Shown here piece by piece: positions 1,431 through 40,891 of a stretch of DNA of 61,987 nucleotides (within the stretch, counting starts at the first letter, position 1; the number at the start of each line of letters is the position of its first letter). Source of the stretch: an uncultured Candidatus Saccharibacteria bacterium. Its GTDB lineage: Bacteria > Patescibacteriota > Minisyncoccia > Minisyncoccales > UBA5738. The stretch is taken from the NCBI GenBank assembly GCA_964603475.1, contig CAZRVG010000001.1, positions 1 to 61,987 on the forward strand. Direction: 5' to 3'. Both the position numbers and the translations under genes were made by a program. Under the pieces are notes generated by a model, which had not been told where the DNA came from, searched no databases, and saw only the letters and a program-made list of their open reading frames with translations.

Positions 1431-2342
1431 ATGAAATTGTTCACGATTAAAAACCTGTTAATCGCCGCGATCATTTGCTGTGCCGCAATCGGCATGGCAA
1501 TTTTTGCGTTGCTTTCTTCGCAAAAAAAAGAACCGGTCAAAGAGCCCGCCAAGCCCGAACAAAAAATTGAAGAACCCGCAAAAATCGCGGAGCCGGAAAT
1601 AGCGAAACATAAAATAATCGGCTATTCGGCGCAAAACCGACCCATTGAATCCCACACCTTCGGCACCGGAGAAAAATTATTGGTTTTTGTGGGCGGAATT
1701 CATGGCGGATATGAATGGAACAGTTCGCTTTTGGCTTGGGAATTTATTGATTACTTCGAAAAAAATCCCAAATCAATCCCCGAAAATTTATCCGTGGCGA
1801 TAATTCCCGCGCTCAATCCCGACGGATTGGCAAAAATCACCGGCAAAGACGGAAGGTTTACTATTGCCGACATTCCCGAGGGAAATAATGAAACCGGCAG
1901 ATTTAACGCCAACAATGTGGATCTAAACCGCAATTTTGACTGCAACTGGCAACCCAAAGGCCTTTGGCGGCAAAAAGAAGTGAGTGCCGGCACCGCGCCG
2001 TTTTCCGAACCCGAAAGCAAAGCGATCCGCGATTTTGTTTTGCAAAACAATCCCGCGGCGGTTCTTTTTTGGCACAGCCAATCAAACGCGGTCTACGGCT
2101 CAATGTGCAACAACGACATGATGCCCGAAACCCGCGTGATTTTGAACGCCTACGCCAACGTTTCGGGATATGCGGCCGTGGACACTTTTGACAATTATCA
2201 AATAACGGGCGACGCCACCGACTGGCTCGCGTCAATCAACGTCCCCGCAATCAGCGTGGAACTTTCCACCCACAACACCATTGAATGGACAAAAAACCTC
2301 GCCGGCATTACCGCCCTTTTTAATTATTATAAAAACAAATGA
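1431..2342 (+). CDS. Membrane-anchored M14 zinc carboxypeptidase (MpaA-like subfamily possible)
   Basis: GGIHGGYE, NPDG, RFNANNVDLNRNF, FWHS (Zn His), ISVEL (catalytic Glu). Confidence 0.88.
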   Translation: MKLFTIKNLLIAAIICCAAIGMAIFALLSSQKKEPVKEPAKPEQKIEEPAKIAEPEIAKHKIIGYSAQNRPIESHTFGTGEKLLVFVGGIHGGYEWNSSLLAWEFIDYFEKNPKSIPENLSVAIIPALNPDGLAKITGKDGRFTIADIPEGNNETGRFNANNVDLNRNFDCNWQPKGLWRQKEVSAGTAPFSEPESKAIRDFVLQNNPAAVLFWHSQSNAVYGSMCNNDMMPETRVILNAYANVSGYAAVDTFDNYQITGDATDWLASINVPAISVELSTHNTIEWTKNLAGITALFNYYKNK

Positions 2343-3742
2343 AAATCACTTTTTGGGGCGCGGCGCGAAACGTTACCGGGTCAAAACATCTAATAGAAAC
2401 CGGCGGATTCAAACTTTTGCTTGATTGCGGATTTTATCAAGGCAGAAGGACCGACGCCAACCAGCAAAACCGAACTTTGCCGTTTGCCGCCGACAACGTG
2501 AACGCCGCAATTTTGTCGCACGCGCATTTGGATCACTGCGGCACTCTGCCGGTTTTGGTAAAAGACGGCTTTGCCGGAAGAATATATTGCACTCCGGCCA
2601 CTGCCGATATCGCCGAATATATTTTGATGGATTCGGCCAATATCCAAAAGCACGACTGCGAATATTTCAATTCCCACGTCTCGGAAAAAGAAGCGATAAC
2701 CCCCATCTATACCGAAGAAGACGTGCAGCGGGTAATCAGCCGTTTTGAAACCGTGGATTATTTTTCATCCACGGGCGAATGGACGAACATCAATGAAAAT
2801 ATCCGCTTTAAGTTTTATGATGCCGGCCACATTTTGGGCGCGGCGGCGGTTTTGCTGGAAATAAAAGAAAATGGCACAACAAAAACTTTATGTTTTTCCG
2901 GCGACCTGGGACGCGACGAACTGCCGATATTGCGCGCCCCCGAGCCCATTCAAGAAAGCGCGCAAACTCTGATAATGGAATGCACCTACGGCAACCGCAC
3001 GCATCAACCAATGCCGCAAGTGTTTGACAAGGTAAAAGACATCATCAAAACCGCCCTGCGCAAAAAAAGCAAAATAATCGTGCCCGCGTTTTCTCTGGGA
3101 AGAACGCAAGAGTTGATTTATATTCTGCATCTGTTAATCAAACAGAAAGCAATTCCAAAACTGCCGATATATATTGACACGCCGCTGGGTGACAAGATTA
3201 CTAAGATTTTTCCCCGCTATGTTGATCTTTTTGATGATAATTTCAAAAAAGAATTCGGGGATAACGGCTATTGGGCGTTTAACTTTGACAATTTGAAATA
3301 TATCCAATCAACCGCCGAATCAAAATCGCTCAACGGCAAAAATGGGCCGTTTATCGTTATCGCCGGATCGGGAATGTGCGAAGGCGGCCGCGTTTTGCAT
3401 CACCTAAAAAACAATATCGGCAATGCAAACAATATTGTTTTAATCACCGGCTTTCAGGCCGCAAACACTCTGGGGCGAAAAATTTTGGAAAAGCAAAGCC
3501 CCGTTAAAATATTCGGCCGGGGGTATGACGCGCGCGCCAAAATAATGGTGCTAAACGAACTAAGCGCTCACGCCGACCAACAAGATTTGCTAAATTACGC
3601 CAAAAGCATCAACGGATTAAAAAATCTCTTTTTGGTGCACACCGAACCGCCCCAAGCTCAAGCCTTCGCCGAATTGGCGCAAAAATCCCTCCCCGCCATT
3701 TCAGTAAATATCCCCGAATTTTCCCAATCTTTTAACCTGTAG
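2339..3742 (+). CDS. MBL-fold beta-CASP metallo-hydrolase (Ysh1/RNA-processing family)
   Basis: LSHAHLDHCG, AGHILG, FSGDLG, MECTYG, GSGMCEGGR, SAHAD, LVH motifs. Confidence 0.92.
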   Translation: MKITFWGAARNVTGSKHLIETGGFKLLLDCGFYQGRRTDANQQNRTLPFAADNVNAAILSHAHLDHCGTLPVLVKDGFAGRIYCTPATADIAEYILMDSANIQKHDCEYFNSHVSEKEAITPIYTEEDVQRVISRFETVDYFSSTGEWTNINENIRFKFYDAGHILGAAAVLLEIKENGTTKTLCFSGDLGRDELPILRAPEPIQESAQTLIMECTYGNRTHQPMPQVFDKVKDIIKTALRKKSKIIVPAFSLGRTQELIYILHLLIKQKAIPKLPIYIDTPLGDKITKIFPRYVDLFDDNFKKEFGDNGYWAFNFDNLKYIQSTAESKSLNGKNGPFIVIAGSGMCEGGRVLHHLKNNIGNANNIVLITGFQAANTLGRKILEKQSPVKIFGRGYDARAKIMVLNELSAHADQQDLLNYAKSINGLKNLFLVHTEPPQAQAFAELAQKSLPAISVNIPEFSQSFNL

Positions 3743-3791: not shown

Positions 3792-3855
3792 TAAGGTCAT
3801 ACCTTGACGATTATCCCGAGGCTTTGCGAGGGATAATTGGCAAGGTATGACCTTA
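3792..3855. repeat. Long hairpin / REP-like doublet, family E (AAGGT-CAT-ACCTT ... AAGGT-ATG-ACCTT)
   Basis: Perfect 15-bp IR at 3792-3806/3841-3855 plus an inner attatccc/gggataat stem. Confidence 0.85.
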
Positions 3856-4000: not shown

Positions 4001-4636
4001 ATGAAGAAGAAATTTGTTTGGGGGGGGATTGTGGCGGCGGGTTTTGCGGCAAGTGCCTGGTTTTATCCGCAAATACCCGAGATTATGGCCACGCATTGGG
4101 GAGTTGACGGTCAGGCAAATGGATATATGAATAAGTTTTGGGGATTGTTTTTACTGCCGATAATTTTGACGGCCATCATTGGACTAATGCTGATTGTTCC
4201 CAAAATTGATCCGCTGAAACAAAACATTGCCAAGTTCCGCGGTTATTATGACAATTTCATTTTGTTTATCGCCGTGTTTTTGCTTTATATTCACGCCTTA
4301 ACCATCGCTTGGAACATGGGTTTTGAATTTGATATGACTAAATCGATTATTCCGGCAATGGCGGCGATTTTTTGGCTTGCCGGAATTTTGATGGAAAAAT
4401 CAAAACGCAATTGGTTTGTCGGCGTGCGCACACCTTGGACAATTTCCGACGATAATGTTTGGAACAAAACCAACAAATTGGGCGCAAAAATTTTCAAAAT
4501 TTTTGCCGTTGCCGGCTTATTGATAATGTTTTTGCCCGCCGTATATTTCATGTGGCTGATTTATGTCCTCATCGCCGCCTCAATCTATCTGATAATTTAT
4601 TCCTATCTTCTCTGGCGCAAAACGAGTCGCGGTTAA
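4001..4636 (+). CDS. SdpI/DUF1648 family immunity membrane protein
   Basis: PEIMATHWGVDGQANGY and RNWFVGVRTPWT motifs, multiple TMs. Confidence 0.88.
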   Translation: MKKKFVWGGIVAAGFAASAWFYPQIPEIMATHWGVDGQANGYMNKFWGLFLLPIILTAIIGLMLIVPKIDPLKQNIAKFRGYYDNFILFIAVFLLYIHALTIAWNMGFEFDMTKSIIPAMAAIFWLAGILMEKSKRNWFVGVRTPWTISDDNVWNKTNKLGAKIFKIFAVAGLLIMFLPAVYFMWLIYVLIAASIYLIIYSYLLWRKTSRG

Positions 4637-4766
4637 CGGACATTCCAACATTCTCAAGAATGTGAGAATGTTCGCCAAATTATTCTAGCAAAATAAAAAC
4701 GGGGGGTGACCCGTTTTTTAATGTATATACATTTGTACGTGTTTGAATACGATTTAAATACGCACC

Positions 4767-10393: not shown

Positions 10394-10434
10394 AATAAAT
10401 TGCGTGGGTCTGACCCACGCAAAAAAACATATGA
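10394..10434 (+). repeat. Left ~40-bp direct repeat containing the family A palindrome TGCGTGGGT-CTG-ACCCACGCA and ending at the transposase ATG
   Basis: aataaattgcgtgggtctgacccacgcaaaaaaacatatga. Confidence 0.92.
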
Positions 10435-11210
10435 GCATTAAAGTTGAACCATTTACGGTAGGCGATTATATCCATGCGTATAATTGCGGCAACAAAAAAG
10501 CGCAAATATTCTTTGACAAGTCGGATTATTGGCGGTTTTCGTGGTGCCTAAGATTTTTTAATGACCAAAGAAGTATTTATGATTTTGCCAAATGCTTAAC
10601 CGATTTAGTCTATGAACAAAAAGAAATCTTGCAAAAATTGCGTGGGTCTGACCCACGCAGAAAGGCACCCTATCTGGATGGACGAAATACTTTTGAATGG
10701 CGAACCGAAGAATGGGGAGAGCAACAGCCATTAGTTCAAATAATATCTTATCATTTGTCGCCAAATCACTTTCATTTGTTTTTAAAAGAGATTATTTCTG
10801 GCGGTATCAGTAAATTTATGCAAAAAATCGGCGGGGGATATACTGTTTACCGAAACTTAAAAAGCCATGAAGCTGGAAGAATATTTCAAGGCAGCTATCG
10901 CGGGAAGACAATAAAGGATGAAAGATACTTTCAATATTTAGACGCGTATATTCAGGTTTTCAATGCTTTTGAGCTTTTTGAGGGCGGAATTTTAAACGCC
11001 CTCAACCATTTTGACGAAGCGTTTCAATTCGCGCTGGATTATCCGTTCTGTAGTCTGGGCGAATCATTCGGAATAAGAAATTTGGGAATTGTTAATAGGA
11101 GCTCTTTCCAAGAGAAATTTCCAAATTTAGAAACATACAAAGAATTTTGCCGCGACGCATTATTAACCCGGAGTGTCCGTGAATTTTTGGGTAAATTAAC
11201 CCTGGAATAA
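10431..11210 (+). mobile_element. REP-associated tyrosine transposase-like (RAYT / Y1 HUH) gene; likely start is ATG 10431
   Basis: YIHAYNCGN...IF..DY.RF, YHLSPNHFHL (HUH), IFQGSY, AYIQ (catalytic Tyr); flanked by palindromes. Confidence 0.85.
10639..10659. repeat. Family A palindrome inside the transposase CDS (encodes LRGSDPR)
   Basis: tgcgtgggtctgacccacgca, identical to 10400-10421 core. Confidence 0.92.
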
Positions 11211-11245
11211 ATTGCGTGGGTAAGACCCACGCAAAAAACATATGA
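11206..11245 (+). repeat. Right ~40-bp direct repeat (loop AAG) ending at the DUF2207 ATG
   Basis: aataaattgcgtgggtaagacccacgcaaaaaacatatga. Confidence 0.92.
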
Positions 11246-12957
11246 AAAAAATATTGGAAATAATAATGATTTGGGGAATAATTATTTTTTTGCCGGTTTG
11301 GGCGCAGGCAAGAGATGCAGGCCAAATTACGGATTGGTATGTTAGGGACTTTCAAAGCACGATTACGGTCAATGACGACGCATCGCTTTTGGTTGAAGAA
11401 AAAATTATTGCCGATTGCGGGAATTTGCCGGACAAGCACGGAATTTTTCGGATTTTGCCCGTGCAAACAAGAACCGAAAGCGGAATCATCAAAACTCCGA
11501 TTGAATTGGTTTCCATCACTGATTTTTCCGGCAATAAAATTACATATTCAACAAGCGTTGACAATTTTAACCATACGATAACCTATAAAATCGGCGATCC
11601 GAATATCACCATAAAAGGAGAAAACGAATATAAAATCACATATTTGGTAAAAAACGCGATCCGGGCGCGAAGCAACGATTTTGACGAATTGTATTGGAAT
11701 CTGTCCGGCAATTTTTGGGACATTGAAATTGATAATTTTGGCGCCGAGATTATTTTCCCGGCAGAAATAAATCGAAACAATTCCGAAGTTTATTTATATA
11801 GCGGCGGTTTGGGCGAAAAAGAAAATCTGTTGGCGAATTATCAATGGAAAAGCGACAATATTTTGCGCGTTTATTCCAACAAAATTCTAATGCCGCGGCA
11901 GGGGACTACCGCGTCAATAATATTCCCAAAAGGAATTATCGCTTCGCATAAACCAAATCTTTTTGAAGCGTATGGCGATTATTTGTGGTTTTTGATTCCG
12001 GTATTGGTTTTTATTTTCAGTTTTTTGATTTGGAATAAACACGGCAAAGACCCGCGGATTGATAAAACGATAATTCCGGAATTTGAAATTCCCCAAAATT
12101 TAACGCCAATGGAAATGGGAATGTTAGCGCAAAACGGAGGATTTAACGATAAGTTTATCACCGCGACAATCGTTGATCTGGCAGTTAAAAAATACATCAT
12201 CATTGAAGAAATTCCCAAAAAGGGAATATTCGGCAAACAGGATTTTTACTTAAAAAAAATCTCCGCCGATTTTAGCGAGCTTGGCAATCCCGAAAAAACG
12301 CTGATTGATAAAATATTTGTCGCAAAGCAAGAGGTTTTATTGTCAAAATTAAAAAATAATTTTTACAAAGATTTGCCGTCAATCAAAAAATCCGCCGCGA
12401 CAGCGCTGGAAAACAAAGACCTCATTTATCCCGGCGGACAAGTGTTAAAAATTACTTTTATAATAATCGGAATGACAGTTCTTGGTTTTGGAATCTTTAT
12501 GTTAAATTTTGGATTTTATTGGATTATTGCAATCTTGCTATCAGCGATAATTTTGGAATTTTTCGGAATTTTAATGCCCAAACGAACCCCGCAAGGCGCC
12601 GAGTTAAATTGGCGGATAAAGGGTTTTAAATTATATATGGAAACCGCTGAAAAATATCGCGCGCGATTTTATGAAAAAGAAAACATTTTTGAAAAATTTC
12701 TGCCTTACGCGATAATGTTTGGCATAACAAAACTTTGGATCAAAAAAATGGAAGAAATCTATGGCAAGGAATATTTTAACAATTATCATCCAATCTGGTA
12801 TGCCGGCGCGATAACAAGCTTTAACGCCGATAGTTTTTCCTCGCAAATAAACACGCTATCTTCGGGCATTGCCTCCAATATCGGCACGGCATCCGGCGCG
12901 CACGGCACCGGCGGTGCCGGCGGAGGGGGTGGTGGCGGAGGGGGCGGCGGCTGGTAA
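11242..12957 (+). CDS. DUF2207 domain membrane protein (YciQ-like)
   Basis: Signal peptide, HGIFR, DELYWN, KRTPQG, FEKFLPYAIMFG, C-terminal GGGGGGGW. Confidence 0.92.
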   Translation: MKKILEIIMIWGIIIFLPVWAQARDAGQITDWYVRDFQSTITVNDDASLLVEEKIIADCGNLPDKHGIFRILPVQTRTESGIIKTPIELVSITDFSGNKITYSTSVDNFNHTITYKIGDPNITIKGENEYKITYLVKNAIRARSNDFDELYWNLSGNFWDIEIDNFGAEIIFPAEINRNNSEVYLYSGGLGEKENLLANYQWKSDNILRVYSNKILMPRQGTTASIIFPKGIIASHKPNLFEAYGDYLWFLIPVLVFIFSFLIWNKHGKDPRIDKTIIPEFEIPQNLTPMEMGMLAQNGGFNDKFITATIVDLAVKKYIIIEEIPKKGIFGKQDFYLKKISADFSELGNPEKTLIDKIFVAKQEVLLSKLKNNFYKDLPSIKKSAATALENKDLIYPGGQVLKITFIIIGMTVLGFGIFMLNFGFYWIIAILLSAIILEFFGILMPKRTPQGAELNWRIKGFKLYMETAEKYRARFYEKENIFEKFLPYAIMFGITKLWIKKMEEIYGKEYFNNYHPIWYAGAITSFNADSFSSQINTLSSGIASNIGTASGAHGTGGAGGGGGGGGGGGW

Positions 12958-25685: not shown

Positions 25686-26735
25686 ATGAAAATCACGATC
25701 ATAGGAGGCGGGGTCTGCGGGCTCTATTTGGCAAAAAATTTGGCGGAAAGGAACCATAAAATAACAGTTTTCGAGAAGAAAAAAACCATCGGAAAACTTT
25801 GCTGTTCGGGATTATTTTCCGCGCGGCTCTTTGATTTTGTTCCCGAAGCACGCGGGTTGGCAACAAACCAAATAAATCGCTGTATTATTAATTTTCCCAA
25901 GAAAAAAATAAATTTAAAATTTCGCCCGCCGTTTTTTGTCATTGACCACGCCCGGCTGGATTTACTTGTCGCCGCTTTAGCGACACGGGCGGGCGCAAAC
26001 ATTCGCATCGGTCAAAACATTGATTTTGCAAGATTGGAAACATTATCCGCCGAATACGACCGCATCATCGGTTGCGACGGCGCCCTATCAACCATCCGCC
26101 AATATCTAATAAGTGGAAATCAAACTTCCTGCGCGGGTCAGACCCACGCAAAATTGCGTGGGTCTGACCCGCGCAAAAATAACCGGCCGAATTTTATGCT
26201 GGGAATTCAAGGGTTTGAACAAAAAGCGGATGATTCTGATTTTGTTGAAACTTGGGCGACGAAAAACGGGTTTTTGTGGCGGATCCCGCGCAGCGAAGAT
26301 GTTGAATGGGGGATTATGGAAGAGCCGGATGTCGCCCGCAGGCTCTTTGATGAATTTATCGCGCAAAAGAACATAAAGCTAGAAGATCTAAGATCGGCAA
26401 TTATCCCGCAAGGATTAACAATTCCCCAAAACAAAAAGATCACTTTGTGCGGCGACGCGTCGGGACTGACCAAGCCATGGTCCGGGGGCGGCGTCATTTG
26501 GAATTTAACCCAAGCCGATCTTCTCTTGAAAAATTTCCCCAATTTTATACAATACAGGAAAGAAGCGAAGCGTTTTTTTGGATTAAGACTGTTTGCGGGC
26601 AATTTTGCCAAAAAATGCGCTTATTTTACCGGATTCAATCTTCCTTGGATAATCCCCGGAGATTTCAATCTTGACGGCGATTACTTGTTAAAATTTAAAA
26701 GAAACGATAATGGACAATCAAGAAACTCTGCCTGA
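25686..26735 (+). CDS. FAD-dependent oxidoreductase, geranylgeranyl reductase-like, carrying an in-frame palindrome insertion
   Basis: GGGVCG, KLCCSG, IIGCDGALS, LCGDASGLTKPWSGGG. Confidence 0.85.
   Translation: MKITIIGGGVCGLYLAKNLAERNHKITVFEKKKTIGKLCCSGLFSARLFDFVPEARGLATNQINRCIINFPKKKINLKFRPPFFVIDHARLDLLVAALATRAGANIRIGQNIDFARLETLSAEYDRIIGCDGALSTIRQYLISGNQTSCAGQTHAKLRGSDPRKNNRPNFMLGIQGFEQKADDSDFVETWATKNGFLWRIPRSEDVEWGIMEEPDVARRLFDEFIAQKNIKLEDLRSAIIPQGLTIPQNKKITLCGDASGLTKPWSGGGVIWNLTQADLLLKNFPNFIQYRKEAKRFFGLRLFAGNFAKKCAYFTGFNLPWIIPGDFNLDGDYLLKFKRNDNGQSRNSA
26130..26175. repeat. Family A REP-like inverted doublet inside the reductase CDS
   Basis: tgcgcgggtcagacccacgca-aaat-tgcgtgggtctgacccgcgca, exact reverse complements. 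Confidence 0.93.
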
Positions 26736-27396
26736 TCATTTGGGAATTATTATGGACGGCAACCGGCGCTGGGCAAAAGAAAGGGGACTACCCACCCTTG
26801 AAGGCCATCGGCGCGGCGCGCAAGCTTTAAAAAATATCGCCTTGGCGGCAAAAAGAAAAGGGATAAAAACCGTCACTTTTTTTTGTTTTTCAACCGAAAA
26901 CTGGAACCGGACAAAGGAAGAAGTTGATTATTTGATGAATTTAATTCACGAAATGTTTGTTTCCCGAATGAATGAACTCCAAAAAGAAAACATCAAAATA
27001 AAAGTTATCGGTCAAAAGAACCGCCTGCCGCGCCAAGTTGCCGAAGAAATCAATATTGTTGAGGAAGAAACAAAAAATAACTCCGCCATGACAATGAATT
27101 TGGCATTAAGCTATGGCGGCAGAGCCGAAATTGTGGACGCGATAAAAAAAATAATCGCCTCCGGCATCAATCCCGACAATATCACCGAAGACACGGTCAA
27201 AAAAAATCTTTGGACATCCGACGTTGATTTGGTTATTCGCACCGGCGGAGAAAGGCGAATGTCTGGGTTTCTATTGTGGCAGTCAGCTTATTCGGAATTT
27301 CTTTTCGTGAATAAATATTGGCCCGAATTTTGCGAAAACGATTTGAATGCGGCACTCGAAGATTACGCCGCGCGGCAACGGCGTTTCGGCAAATAA
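26710..27396 (+). CDS. uppS: Undecaprenyl/polyprenyl diphosphate synthase
   Basis: IIMDGNRRWA, FSTENWNR, YGGRAEI, IRTGGERRMSGFLLWQ. Confidence 0.96.
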   Translation: MDNQETLPDHLGIIMDGNRRWAKERGLPTLEGHRRGAQALKNIALAAKRKGIKTVTFFCFSTENWNRTKEEVDYLMNLIHEMFVSRMNELQKENIKIKVIGQKNRLPRQVAEEINIVEEETKNNSAMTMNLALSYGGRAEIVDAIKKIIASGINPDNITEDTVKKNLWTSDVDLVIRTGGERRMSGFLLWQSAYSEFLFVNKYWPEFCENDLNAALEDYAARQRRFGK

Positions 27397-27465: not shown

Positions 27466-28248
27466 ATGGATATCACCATTGTCAAAATCGCCGGCGCGGT
27501 AATCACAAAAAAAGAGAGCAAAAAGCCAAAAACCAATAACAGTAATATCCGCGCGATTGCCAAAATTTTAAAAGATTTCAATTCGCCCTATGTTTTGGTG
27601 CACGGCTCCGGATCATTCGGCCACCCATTGGCAAAAAAAACCGGCGTTGACAAAACCGTGATCAGCCAAGAGCAATTGCTGGCATTCGCGCAAATCCAAG
27701 AACTGCAAAATCGCCTCAATTATATTTTTTGCGACGCGCTGATGGGCAGCGGCATTCCCGCGTTTCCCGCGCAAGCATCAAGTCACACGATCTTGGAACG
27801 CGGACGATTGGCAAAAATGGAGACCGAAGCCTTGTTTGGGCTAATCAAGCTGAATATGGTGCCGGTTGTCTACGGCGTGCCTGCTTTTGACCGAATATGG
27901 GGTTCGGCAATTCTTTCTTACGATCAAATCGCAACCTATATTGCCAAACAATTGAAAGCAATCAGAATTATTGAAGTGGAAGACGTGGAAGGTATTTTCA
28001 CCGCCAATCCCAAGACAAATAAAAACGCCGAACTAATTCCATTGATCAATGAAAAAAATTGCCAAGAAGTGCGAAATTGCCTTTCGGGAAGCACCGCGCC
28101 CGACGTTACCGGCGGAATGAAACAAAAATATATTGAACTGTTGGATGCCGCCAAGAACGGCATCGTTTGCCAAATTGTTGATTTAAAACATTTCAAAGCC
28201 GCCCTGGAAAACCAACCCTGCGGCACGATTATTAACCTCCAAAAATAA
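27466..28248 (+). CDS. Isopentenyl phosphate kinase-like (amino-acid kinase family)
   Basis: KIAGAVITKK, VHGSGSFGHP (IPK-type His), DVTGGMKQK. Confidence 0.8.
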   Translation: MDITIVKIAGAVITKKESKKPKTNNSNIRAIAKILKDFNSPYVLVHGSGSFGHPLAKKTGVDKTVISQEQLLAFAQIQELQNRLNYIFCDALMGSGIPAFPAQASSHTILERGRLAKMETEALFGLIKLNMVPVVYGVPAFDRIWGSAILSYDQIATYIAKQLKAIRIIEVEDVEGIFTANPKTNKNAELIPLINEKNCQEVRNCLSGSTAPDVTGGMKQKYIELLDAAKNGIVCQIVDLKHFKAALENQPCGTIINLQK

Positions 28249-31890: not shown

Positions 31891-32045
31891 TTCTTATCAA
31901 CACTAAAAGGTTGAATTTTGGGCGAAAACAGGCAATAATCAAGAGGAAATATAAACATACAAACATTTAATCATATAAACACAAACTCGCGGATCGGTTT
32001 TTGCTGTGATTAAATGATTAAATGGTTCTATGATTAAATGATTCT

Positions 32046-40799: not shown

Positions 40800-40808
40800 G
40801 GTTTTTCG

Positions 40809-40854
40809 TGTTGAAATCAAACTTCAACAAGATTGTTGAAGTTTGATTTCAACA
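40809..40854. repeat. Family B REP-like inverted doublet upstream of the murD start
   Basis: tgttgaaatcaaacttcaaca-agat-tgttgaagtttgatttcaaca, exact reverse complements. Confidence 0.92.
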
Positions 40855-40891
40855 CTTTGATTTTAACACAAATTGAGGCATAAAAAAAATG

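Follow-up and report, generated by a model that had tools for sequence, protein, structure and literature searches.

The window analysed here, a stretch of 61,987 nucleotides (nt) of contig CAZRVG010000001.1 (GenBank assembly GCA_964603475.1, an uncultured Candidatus Saccharibacteria bacterium, one of the ultra-small Patescibacteria), carries a perfect 46-bp palindrome at 26130-26175 that is translated in-frame within a gene of the geranylgeranyl-reductase family. The palindrome is probably a doublet of repetitive extragenic palindromic (REP) units, similar to the REP doublets forming hairpins (REPINs) of other bacteria, which lies in a permissive loop of the enzyme and is kept or renewed at the DNA level; its cognate enzyme would most likely be the REP-associated tyrosine transposase (RAYT)-like protein encoded at 10431-11210, some 15 kb away. 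The involvement of the latter is suggested by its association with the repeat, here termed family A, and by co-variation of the two.

Palindrome of the reductase gene

The palindrome consists of two 22-nt arms that are 100% complementary and are separated by the two central nucleotides AA. The left arm, or unit 1 of the doublet (26130-26151, TGCGCGGGTCAGACCCACGCAA, core GGGTCAGACCC), forms by itself an imperfect hairpin with a C.A mismatch, and the right arm, or unit 2 (26154-26175, TTGCGTGGGTCTGACCCGCGCA, core GGGTCTGACCC), is its exact reverse complement. Each single unit is mispaired at one position (C.A or T.G), and perfection is reached only in the long hairpin formed at the level of the doublet. 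RNA folding of the doublet region gives -56.3 kcal/mol (z = -9.6 vs shuffled sequences). A search of the window for the 17-nt unit of family A, allowing for 3 mismatches at most, recovers 5 unit positions (10 strand-matches vs 0.06 expected), which is not attributable to chance. A scan of the window against Rfam returns no family at the gathering score and, near the palindrome, only sub-threshold matches of the generic-hairpin kind to plant microRNA precursor families.

The open reading frame (ORF) at 25686-26735 of the forward strand translates the palindrome as ...TIRQYL-ISGNQTSCAGQTHAKLRGSDPRKNNRP-NFMLGIQGF.... The palindrome can be read in two open frames, namely the one observed (G-Q-T...G-S-D-P) and a second (V-R-P...G-L-T), while the third is blocked by a TGA in the T-loop unit; reading of the reverse strand yields the same three peptide types. 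A previous sequence-only reading of this DNA had described the doublet as translated with the frame preserved, and this is borne out, the peptide given there being short of the bordering I and N only. The palindrome and its flanks are identical in independent assemblies from five public metagenome runs (X1, X2, X3, X4 and X5), with assembly depths over the palindrome from 4x (X4, partly covered) up to 238x, and thus do not represent an assembly artefact.

Host reductase and its expanded linker

The host gene (25686-26735, forward strand) encodes a 349-amino acid (aa), FAD-dependent oxidoreductase that is assigned to the geranylgeranyl-reductase family by TIGR02032, Pfam and fold matches. The match to TIGR02032 has an E-value of 6e-24 but falls below the trusted cut-off (85 vs 159 bits), and further domain matches are to NAD_binding_8, DAO and FAD_binding_3. 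The Rossmann GxGxxG and the GCDGALS motifs are present, with G7, G9, G12 and D131 invariant. The AlphaFold2 (AF2) model (44 orthologues) has a mean predicted local distance difference test (pLDDT) score of 88.6 and is confident except in the insert and the C-terminal tail; its top folds in the PDB are the geranylgeranyl reductase (GGR)-like 3oz2 (E 2e-21) and the Sulfolobus GGR 3atq. The C-terminal tail (26700-26735), 11 residues of pLDDT <50 that are absent from most of the orthologues shown, overlaps the start of uppS (26710) by 26 nt. Homologues of the reductase number 1328, and gene order is conserved in relatives. Downstream in the isoprenoid cluster are uppS (26710-27396) and a gene of the amino-acid-kinase fold (27466-28248); in relatives the same cluster runs on into genes of the mevalonate pathway. 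The reductase keeps all 64 of the 64 invariant columns of the orthologue alignment and, thus, its gene is not a pseudogene.

The expanded linker (26109-26189, forward strand; residues 142-168, ISGNQTSCAGQTHAKLRGSDPRKNNRP) stands in place of an ancestral linker of five residues, GL(K/P)(D/N)P. It measures 27 residues in the window vs 5 in distant orthologues, a net addition of 22 aa or 66 nt. Of 44 aligned orthologues, 17 have the five-residue form, with all those that are distant among them, and the other 27 have linkers of 12-31 residues. Residues 146-164, which have pLDDT <50, are located between a helix of the FAD domain (136-144) that follows the GCDGALS motif and a strand (169-178), the first of the next domain; the insert is predicted by the model to be a disordered interdomain loop. 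The proposal of the sequence-only reading that the palindrome is an in-frame insertion in an enzyme gene is likewise upheld: the ORF of the GG-reductase family is intact, the segment is an insertion relative to orthologues with the five-residue linker (27 vs 5 residues), and no orthologue has a segment of the same length that is free of the palindrome; what they have is a linker of the short kind, or else a palindrome in perfect or decayed form.

Same site in related species

In at least 12 related species that were assembled independently, this codon gap also holds a palindrome, and the frame is unchanged; by this comparison, the insertion is neither private nor recent to the window genome. 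The stem types at the reductase site vary by species (GCGY, GCGG, GCAG and AAAA), and the arms are still perfectly complementary. The inserts include arms of 22 nt in L001 (TGCGGGGGTCAGACCCCCGCAA), 23 nt in L084 (TTGCGTGGGTCAGACCCACGCAA), 20 nt in L081 (GCGTGGGTCCGACCCACGC) and 25 nt, without a spacer, in L088 (TTTGCAGGGGTCAGACCCCTGCAAG); doublets with the core GGGTCCAACCC / GGGTTGGACCC in L089 and L007; two units of AAAAGGGTC[G/C]GACCCTTTT in L003, L005 and L009; two units of AAAGGGGTCTAACCCCTTT in L117; and a single unit in L002. Decayed versions are found in L004, L087, P0003 and P0029, in each case in a gene that is otherwise intact. The L087 reductase gene (1039-2097) has, in addition, a second and unrelated perfect palindrome with 19-nt arms, GCCGGGGTTCAACCCCTGT-TGCGCG-ACAGGGGTTGAACCCCGGC, in-frame elsewhere in the gene (codons for FIQPGFNPCCATGVEPRQ).

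RNAalifold analysis of the doublets of 10 species yields 19 pairs; all of these are intact, and compensatory double changes are seen in 10. The insert of L086 holds one unpaired G.T intermediate. The arms of L081, L084 and L001 agree with those of the window at 40-42 of 44 positions (91-95%), compared with 47-53% identity at the four-fold degenerate sites of the same reductase genes (P about 1e-9). By contrast, the insert peptides diverge strongly between species (GQTHAKLRGSDPR, GRTLFKKGSDPF and GQTPASLQGSDPC). Thus, with arms that are perfect and conserved and peptides that are divergent, it is nucleic-acid complementarity that is conserved and not protein sequence, and the complementarity of the arms is evidently maintained at the DNA level. 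The core GGGTCNGACCC is found solely at the reductase site in 506 kb of flanking DNA of 80 species.

RAYT-like gene and its hairpins

The gene at 10431-11210 (forward strand) encodes a 259-aa, RAYT-like Y1/HUH transposase as judged by Pfam PF01797, conserved residues and fold. The match to PF01797 (Y1_Tnp) scores 27.2 bits (cut-off 23), and H113-x-H115 and Y169/Y173/Q175 are invariant across 32 transposase homologues; in all, the ORF has 338 homologues, for the most part in Patescibacteria. The AF2 model (pLDDT 83) finds its best PDB fold in 4er8_A, the Escherichia coli RAYT with a REP hairpin (E 1e-4, template modelling score 0.60 on target), followed in rank by ISDra2 TnpA and IS608 TnpA. 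Comparison to the solved RAYTs of the PDB by sequence only is not significant, and the link is seen by fold alone. The gene is present in one copy in the window, and its neighbour genes differ between genomes.

The family A repeat is associated with this gene. One hairpin, TTGCGTGGGTCTGACCCACGCAA (10400-10422), is located 8 nt upstream of the start codon within a direct repeat of ~41 nt (10394-10434); another (10638-10660) is in-frame inside the ORF; and a third (11212-11234, variant core GGGTAAGACCC) directly follows the stop codon and belongs to the other copy of this repeat (11206-11245). The direct repeats of ~40 nt that bracket the gene have the form AATAAA + hairpin + AAAAA(A)CATATGA; the 5' repeat includes the start codon of the RAYT-like gene, and the 3' repeat its stop codon as well as the start codon of the gene that follows (11242). 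This next gene (11242-12957) encodes a 571-aa membrane protein with a C-terminal Gly-rich run, ...GGAGGGGGGGGGGGW (12900-12957).

The internal hairpin encodes QKLRGSDPRRK, in agreement with the sequence-only reading, which had noted LRGSDPR in the transposase as well as in the reductase. It is an insertion: homologues of 236 aa are without the segment, and closer ones have LRGSDPR, LRGLDPR, LQGSDPC or LKGLDPF, the variants LRGSDPR, LQGSDPC and LKGLDPF being matched to type. The region of this hairpin (residues 73-87) has pLDDT <50. A hairpin within the RAYT-like ORF may reflect a self-targeted insertion or an autoregulatory site. All six RAYT loci examined have hairpins on the 5' side (~10-75 nt before the start), internally (in-frame at the same position) and on the 3' side (at most ~20 nt after the stop), and each locus is of one stem type: GCGT in the window and L106, GCGG in L092 and L114, and GCAG in L115 and L116.

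Copies elsewhere and concordance of stem types

Stem type is, on the loci compared, concordant within a locus and, where tested, within a genome. Two pairs of RAYT locus and reductase gene lie on one molecule, and in both pairs the stems are of the GCGT class. The first pair is that of the window, where all three RAYT hairpins are GCGT and where either arm of the reductase doublet combines a GCGT-type with a GCGC-type end, and thus has one C/G variant position. In the second pair, on contig Ga0265592_1000277, GCGT is found at the RAYT locus (L106) as well as in the reductase gene (L109, a single unit). In sample Ga0172379, three loci on separate contigs can be compared: the reductase doublet L102 (on the contig of L088) and L097 are of the GCAG type, and L103 is a GCAG/GCGG hybrid; in sample Ga0116202, the reductase doublet L091, L093 and the topoisomerase I (TopA) doublet L111 are all GCGG. 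The window genome has at least three further loci with family A units, on contigs of equal depth. Among them is another doublet, which has 1 mismatch and an added AAA in the loop, and thus the doublet variant is a member of the family and not a product of the reductase locus alone.

Partial units are found beside complete ones. The internal RAYT site of L116 (~3216-3245) reads TTGCGGGGGT + TGCAGGGGTCCGACCCCTGC, an old-type (GCGG) left half followed by a complete new-type (GCAG) unit. Right-half duplications of the form CCCACGCAA...CCCACGCAAAA are noted in the reductase inserts of L081 (~4620-4650) and L084 (~480-510) and in the RAYT 3' flank of L092, and the reductase insert of L007 has a left-half duplication with a right-half-like remnant downstream. 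Such half-unit duplications and remnants look like the footprints expected of units that enter or replace residents, or of slippage.

The inventory of the family is based on a scan of Joint Genome Institute (JGI) metagenome DNA with TTGCRKGGGTCNGACCCMYGCAA. About 12 of the 25 stretches recovered (about half) are in-frame inside identified genes, which encode the reductase (3), the RAYT (3), a DegT-type aminotransferase (3, one gene), a MiaB-like methylthiotransferase, UvrC and topoisomerase I. In related metagenomic Patescibacteria, family A hairpins are in-frame at two or three sites in UvrC (L104, 6372-7625) and are also in-frame in the MiaB-like methylthiotransferase (L101, 1149-2534) and the DegT-type aminotransferase (L108, 12201-13550). 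TopA (L111, 5990-8134) has the doublet in the other open frame, VAGVRPPQACGGLTPA, as an insertion relative to the solved enzyme 6ozw. The TGA-closed frame of the unit is never met in a long ORF among the recovered copies. A peptide search with a 98-aa concatenate of variants gave no candidates and also missed known carriers, so that absence is not implied. The earlier suggestion that RAYT-mobilised hairpins add loops to proteins of the Candidate Phyla Radiation (CPR) is supported by the in-frame copies of TopA, UvrC and the MiaB-like and DegT-type enzymes, whereas mobilisation by a RAYT is inferred.

Other repeats in the window

A small hairpin, GGAAATCAAACTTCC (26115-26129), adjoins the doublet on its left and shares the 13-mer GAAATCAAACTTC with an arm of a family B doublet (40813-40825); the chance expectation for this common 13-mer is ~0.015 by the analysts' own estimate. 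The small hairpin is possibly, on weak evidence, the remnant of a second element at the site, or it is due to chance. Family B is represented by two perfect doublets (1309-1354 and 40808-40855) with arms of 21-23 nt of the TGTTGAAGTCAAACTTCAACA type. Both are intergenic: two peptidase-like ORFs border one of them, and a murD-like gene has the other at its 5' end. Of the remaining inverted repeats, the one at 3792-3855, downstream of the ORF at 2339-3742, has 26-nt arms (92% complementary) with a 12-nt spacer and forms a separate sequence family, and the one at 31949-32039 is AT-rich with 35-nt arms (83% complementary).

History of the site and alternative explanations

A neighbour-joining tree of the reductase gene (linker masked, about 300 columns, 100 bootstraps) interleaves occupied and empty alleles. 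Occupied alleles are monophyletic in 0 of 100 bootstraps and at least 5 state changes are required in every replicate; judged by this tree, occupancy of the site has changed repeatedly. The occupied P0023 and the empty P0030 are sisters in 99% of replicates, the DNA of the former having a perfect palindrome with 20-nt arms and that of the latter CTT GGC TTG CCC GAT CCG. Empty alleles keep the length and consensus of the outgroup and are therefore in the ancestral state or products of precise excision, not ordinary deletions. The window and L081 are also sisters (99% bootstrap) and have in common the flanks TCC... / ...CGG CCG and extra linker residues, with arms that differ by two paired changes only, which speaks for inheritance of an occupied site and for later change with the palindrome preserved. 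Stem types are discordant with the gene tree.

The main rival for maintenance in place is a single ancient insertion that was perfected by intra-strand template switching without a transposase, the empty sites being losses. Quasi-palindrome template-switch mutagenesis is an established process, and it would fit the identity of site and frame in all species, the two paired changes that distinguish the sister arms of the window and L081 between common flanks, the unpaired G.T intermediate of L086 and the perfect pairing of the window arms despite a mismatch in each unit alone. However, it leaves unexplained why the stem type of the reductase insert matches that of the three RAYT hairpins and of loci elsewhere on the contig, in the sample or in the genome, and why current units have remnants of other stem types next to them. 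Imprecise deletion would not restore the five-residue consensus that nested empty sites keep (P0030, sister of P0023), and the state changes required in every bootstrap tree (at least 5) and the discordance of stem types with the gene tree also speak against a single event, which is considered unlikely. The patchy occupancy, with the same minimum of five changes, is instead compatible with recurrent, independent REPIN insertion into a hotspot, be it a preferred target and/or the sole loop where an insert survives selection. The perfect palindrome of P0023 vs the ancestral-type linker of its sister, the scatter of stem types over the tree and the REP-unit-like empty site of L008 (TTGGGTTTGCCGGACCCGCAA) favor such a hotspot, whereas the empty sites of L118, L006 and L012 have no REP-like look, close relatives share linker residues beyond the palindrome (...RP, S-x-N-x-T-S-C) that indicate inherited occupancy in a sub-clade, and the second permissive site in the same enzyme of L087 means that 'only one tolerant loop' is not strictly true. 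A hotspot is a tentative alternative. The related notion of a 'proto-REP target', in which the ancestral GLPDP codons mimic the REP core, applies to L008 and not to L118, L006 or L012 and was set aside as a minor possibility only.

A co-opted host function of the hairpin in the transcript, such as an RNase III or stability determinant in the mRNA of the isoprenoid operon or a translational pause at the domain boundary, would be in keeping with the strong structure-preserving covariation (G.U-type intermediate included), with conservation that far exceeds neutral sites and with an insert placed exactly at the interdomain boundary. It is nonetheless improbable, as many orthologues, close ones included, are without the hairpin or have a decayed one (L004, L087, P0003 and P0029) in an otherwise intact gene, and as the element also occurs between genes, in unrelated genes and on either side of and within the transposase gene, as expected of a selfish repeat. 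The tendency of low-coverage assemblies to break at the palindrome might suggest an assembly fold-back, and a dead host gene could also be envisaged; artefact and pseudogene are both effectively refuted by the identical sequence with both flanks in independent assemblies (4x to 238x), the homologous palindromes of at least 12 independently assembled species, and an intact ORF with all 64 invariant columns and a model that is confident outside the insert and C-terminal tail.

Several observations weigh against a RAYT-renewed, REPIN-like doublet. The family is of low copy, with 5 units in the 62 kb of the window and 25 stretches in the JGI scan, and its unit TTGCGTGGGTCTGACCCACGCAA is without a GTAG or CGTC tag. 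The concordance of the GCGG and GCAG types is that of the same sample and is not proven to be that of the same genome. Flanking linker residues differ between occupied and empty alleles, which are not a plain 'empty site plus element', and thus an insertion point and a target duplication cannot be defined. Paired changes of the arms could arise without a transposase via quasi-palindrome template switching. Transposition, excision and cleavage were not observed, and the reductase gene was found in no RNA run. An empty-site allele or excision joint was not seen in the contigs of eight public runs, which is weak evidence since contigs drop rare variants.

Proposed mechanism

In the favored explanation, that of a REPIN-like doublet kept or renewed in a permissive loop, two inverted copies of a REP-type hairpin of ~23 nt would form one long hairpin, and resident copies would be held perfect and matched to the current REP type of the genome by a process at the DNA level. 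The likeliest such process is that the RAYT, acting on hairpins of single-stranded DNA (ssDNA), seeds copies and inserts into or replaces a resident REP, which would leave half-unit duplications; precise excision of the Y1 type may generate the ancestral-looking empty alleles, and template switching within the palindrome may contribute. Only additions of 3n nt in an open frame and a permissive loop would survive. Survival of the insert in the reductase is attributed to an added length that is a multiple of three, to the two of three frames that are open (the observed one giving a peptide rich in Gly, Ser, Thr, Pro, Asp and Arg), to a palindrome that gives near-identical peptides in either orientation and to a linker that tolerates a disordered loop. 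The insert peptide would be a tolerated by-product and not a selected feature.

A more speculative extension, which is put forward with considerable doubt, is that the REPIN-like hairpins of these reduced genomes reside at fixed 'addresses' (loops of essential genes and the RAYT ORF) that are overwritten repeatedly by the current master sequence, with the RAYT using resident REPs as both donor and target. If true, the repeat population would evolve via address-preserving replacement and not dispersal, and the mRNA of a housekeeping gene would carry a perfect 22-bp hairpin that is possibly regulatory.

Significance and comparison with known systems

REP/REPIN-RAYT systems are known mainly from Proteobacteria and as extragenic elements, and in-frame palindromes are the hallmark of the Rickettsia palindromic elements (RPEs). 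The reductase locus joins both, as part of a RAYT-linked hairpin family in Patescibacteria with copies translated inside housekeeping enzymes; full-text literature searches returned no account of REP-like elements in coding sequences of CPR/Patescibacteria. The orthologous-site series (at least 12 species, at least 4 stem types, perfect arms vs saturated neutral sites) is a natural experiment on the maintenance of a palindrome and makes replacement by a transposase vs self-correction directly testable. Such inserts lengthen and diversify the loops of CPR proteins, and the palindrome breaks low-coverage assemblies.

Similarly to the REP/REPIN-RAYT systems (e.g., E. coli TnpA_REP and Pseudomonas REPINs), family A has short palindromic units that are single or combined as inverted doublets into a longer hairpin (an architecture seen in more than 10 species), a stem type specific to the genome, and a Y1/HUH transposase-like gene that is flanked by cognate units and has its nearest fold in 4er8. 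In classical REP/REPIN families, a genome contains tens to hundreds of copies, which are 'almost exclusively' extragenic (bioRxiv 10.1101/2021.07.10.451892), and the REP carries a GTAG or CGTC tetranucleotide tag at one end (PMC3733652). By contrast, family A is of low copy with about half of the recovered copies in-frame in ORFs, its unit is without either tag, and the RAYT ORF itself contains one unit. At 46 nt, of which 2 nt form the centre, the doublet is shorter than typical REPINs (~100 nt); the 259-aa protein is extended at both the N- and the C-terminus and does not match the solved RAYTs significantly in sequence; and the host phylum is Patescibacteria, unlike that of the gamma-proteobacterial systems.

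The IS200/IS605 elements (IS608 and ISDra2) are comparable in having a Y1 HUH gene bracketed by subterminal hairpins, and their folds rank just below 4er8; their ssDNA 'peel and paste' with precise excision would also explain the ancestral-looking empty sites. The locus described here differs in that the same hairpin unit is at both ends (not distinct left and right ends), tnpB is absent, the dispersed copies are bare hairpins, and the gene cassette is without evidence of multi-copy. Quasi-palindrome template-switch correction resembles the present case in its paired arm changes and in restoring complementarity without selection, but it acts at one locus only and leaves the family-wide identity of stem type across loci unexplained.

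The closest parallel is with the RPEs, which, as reportedly described by Ogata and colleagues in 2000, are selfish palindromes that lie in-frame in housekeeping genes and are translated as tolerated surface or loop peptides. RPEs are about 100-150 bp in length; to our knowledge, they have no associated transposase and are confined to Rickettsia and relatives. The reductase palindrome is likewise a palindromic repeat that is in-frame in a protein gene, translated and tolerated, and it is set apart from the RPEs as described by its 46-bp length, its Patescibacteria host, its link to a RAYT-like gene and the turnover of stem types at one orthologous site.

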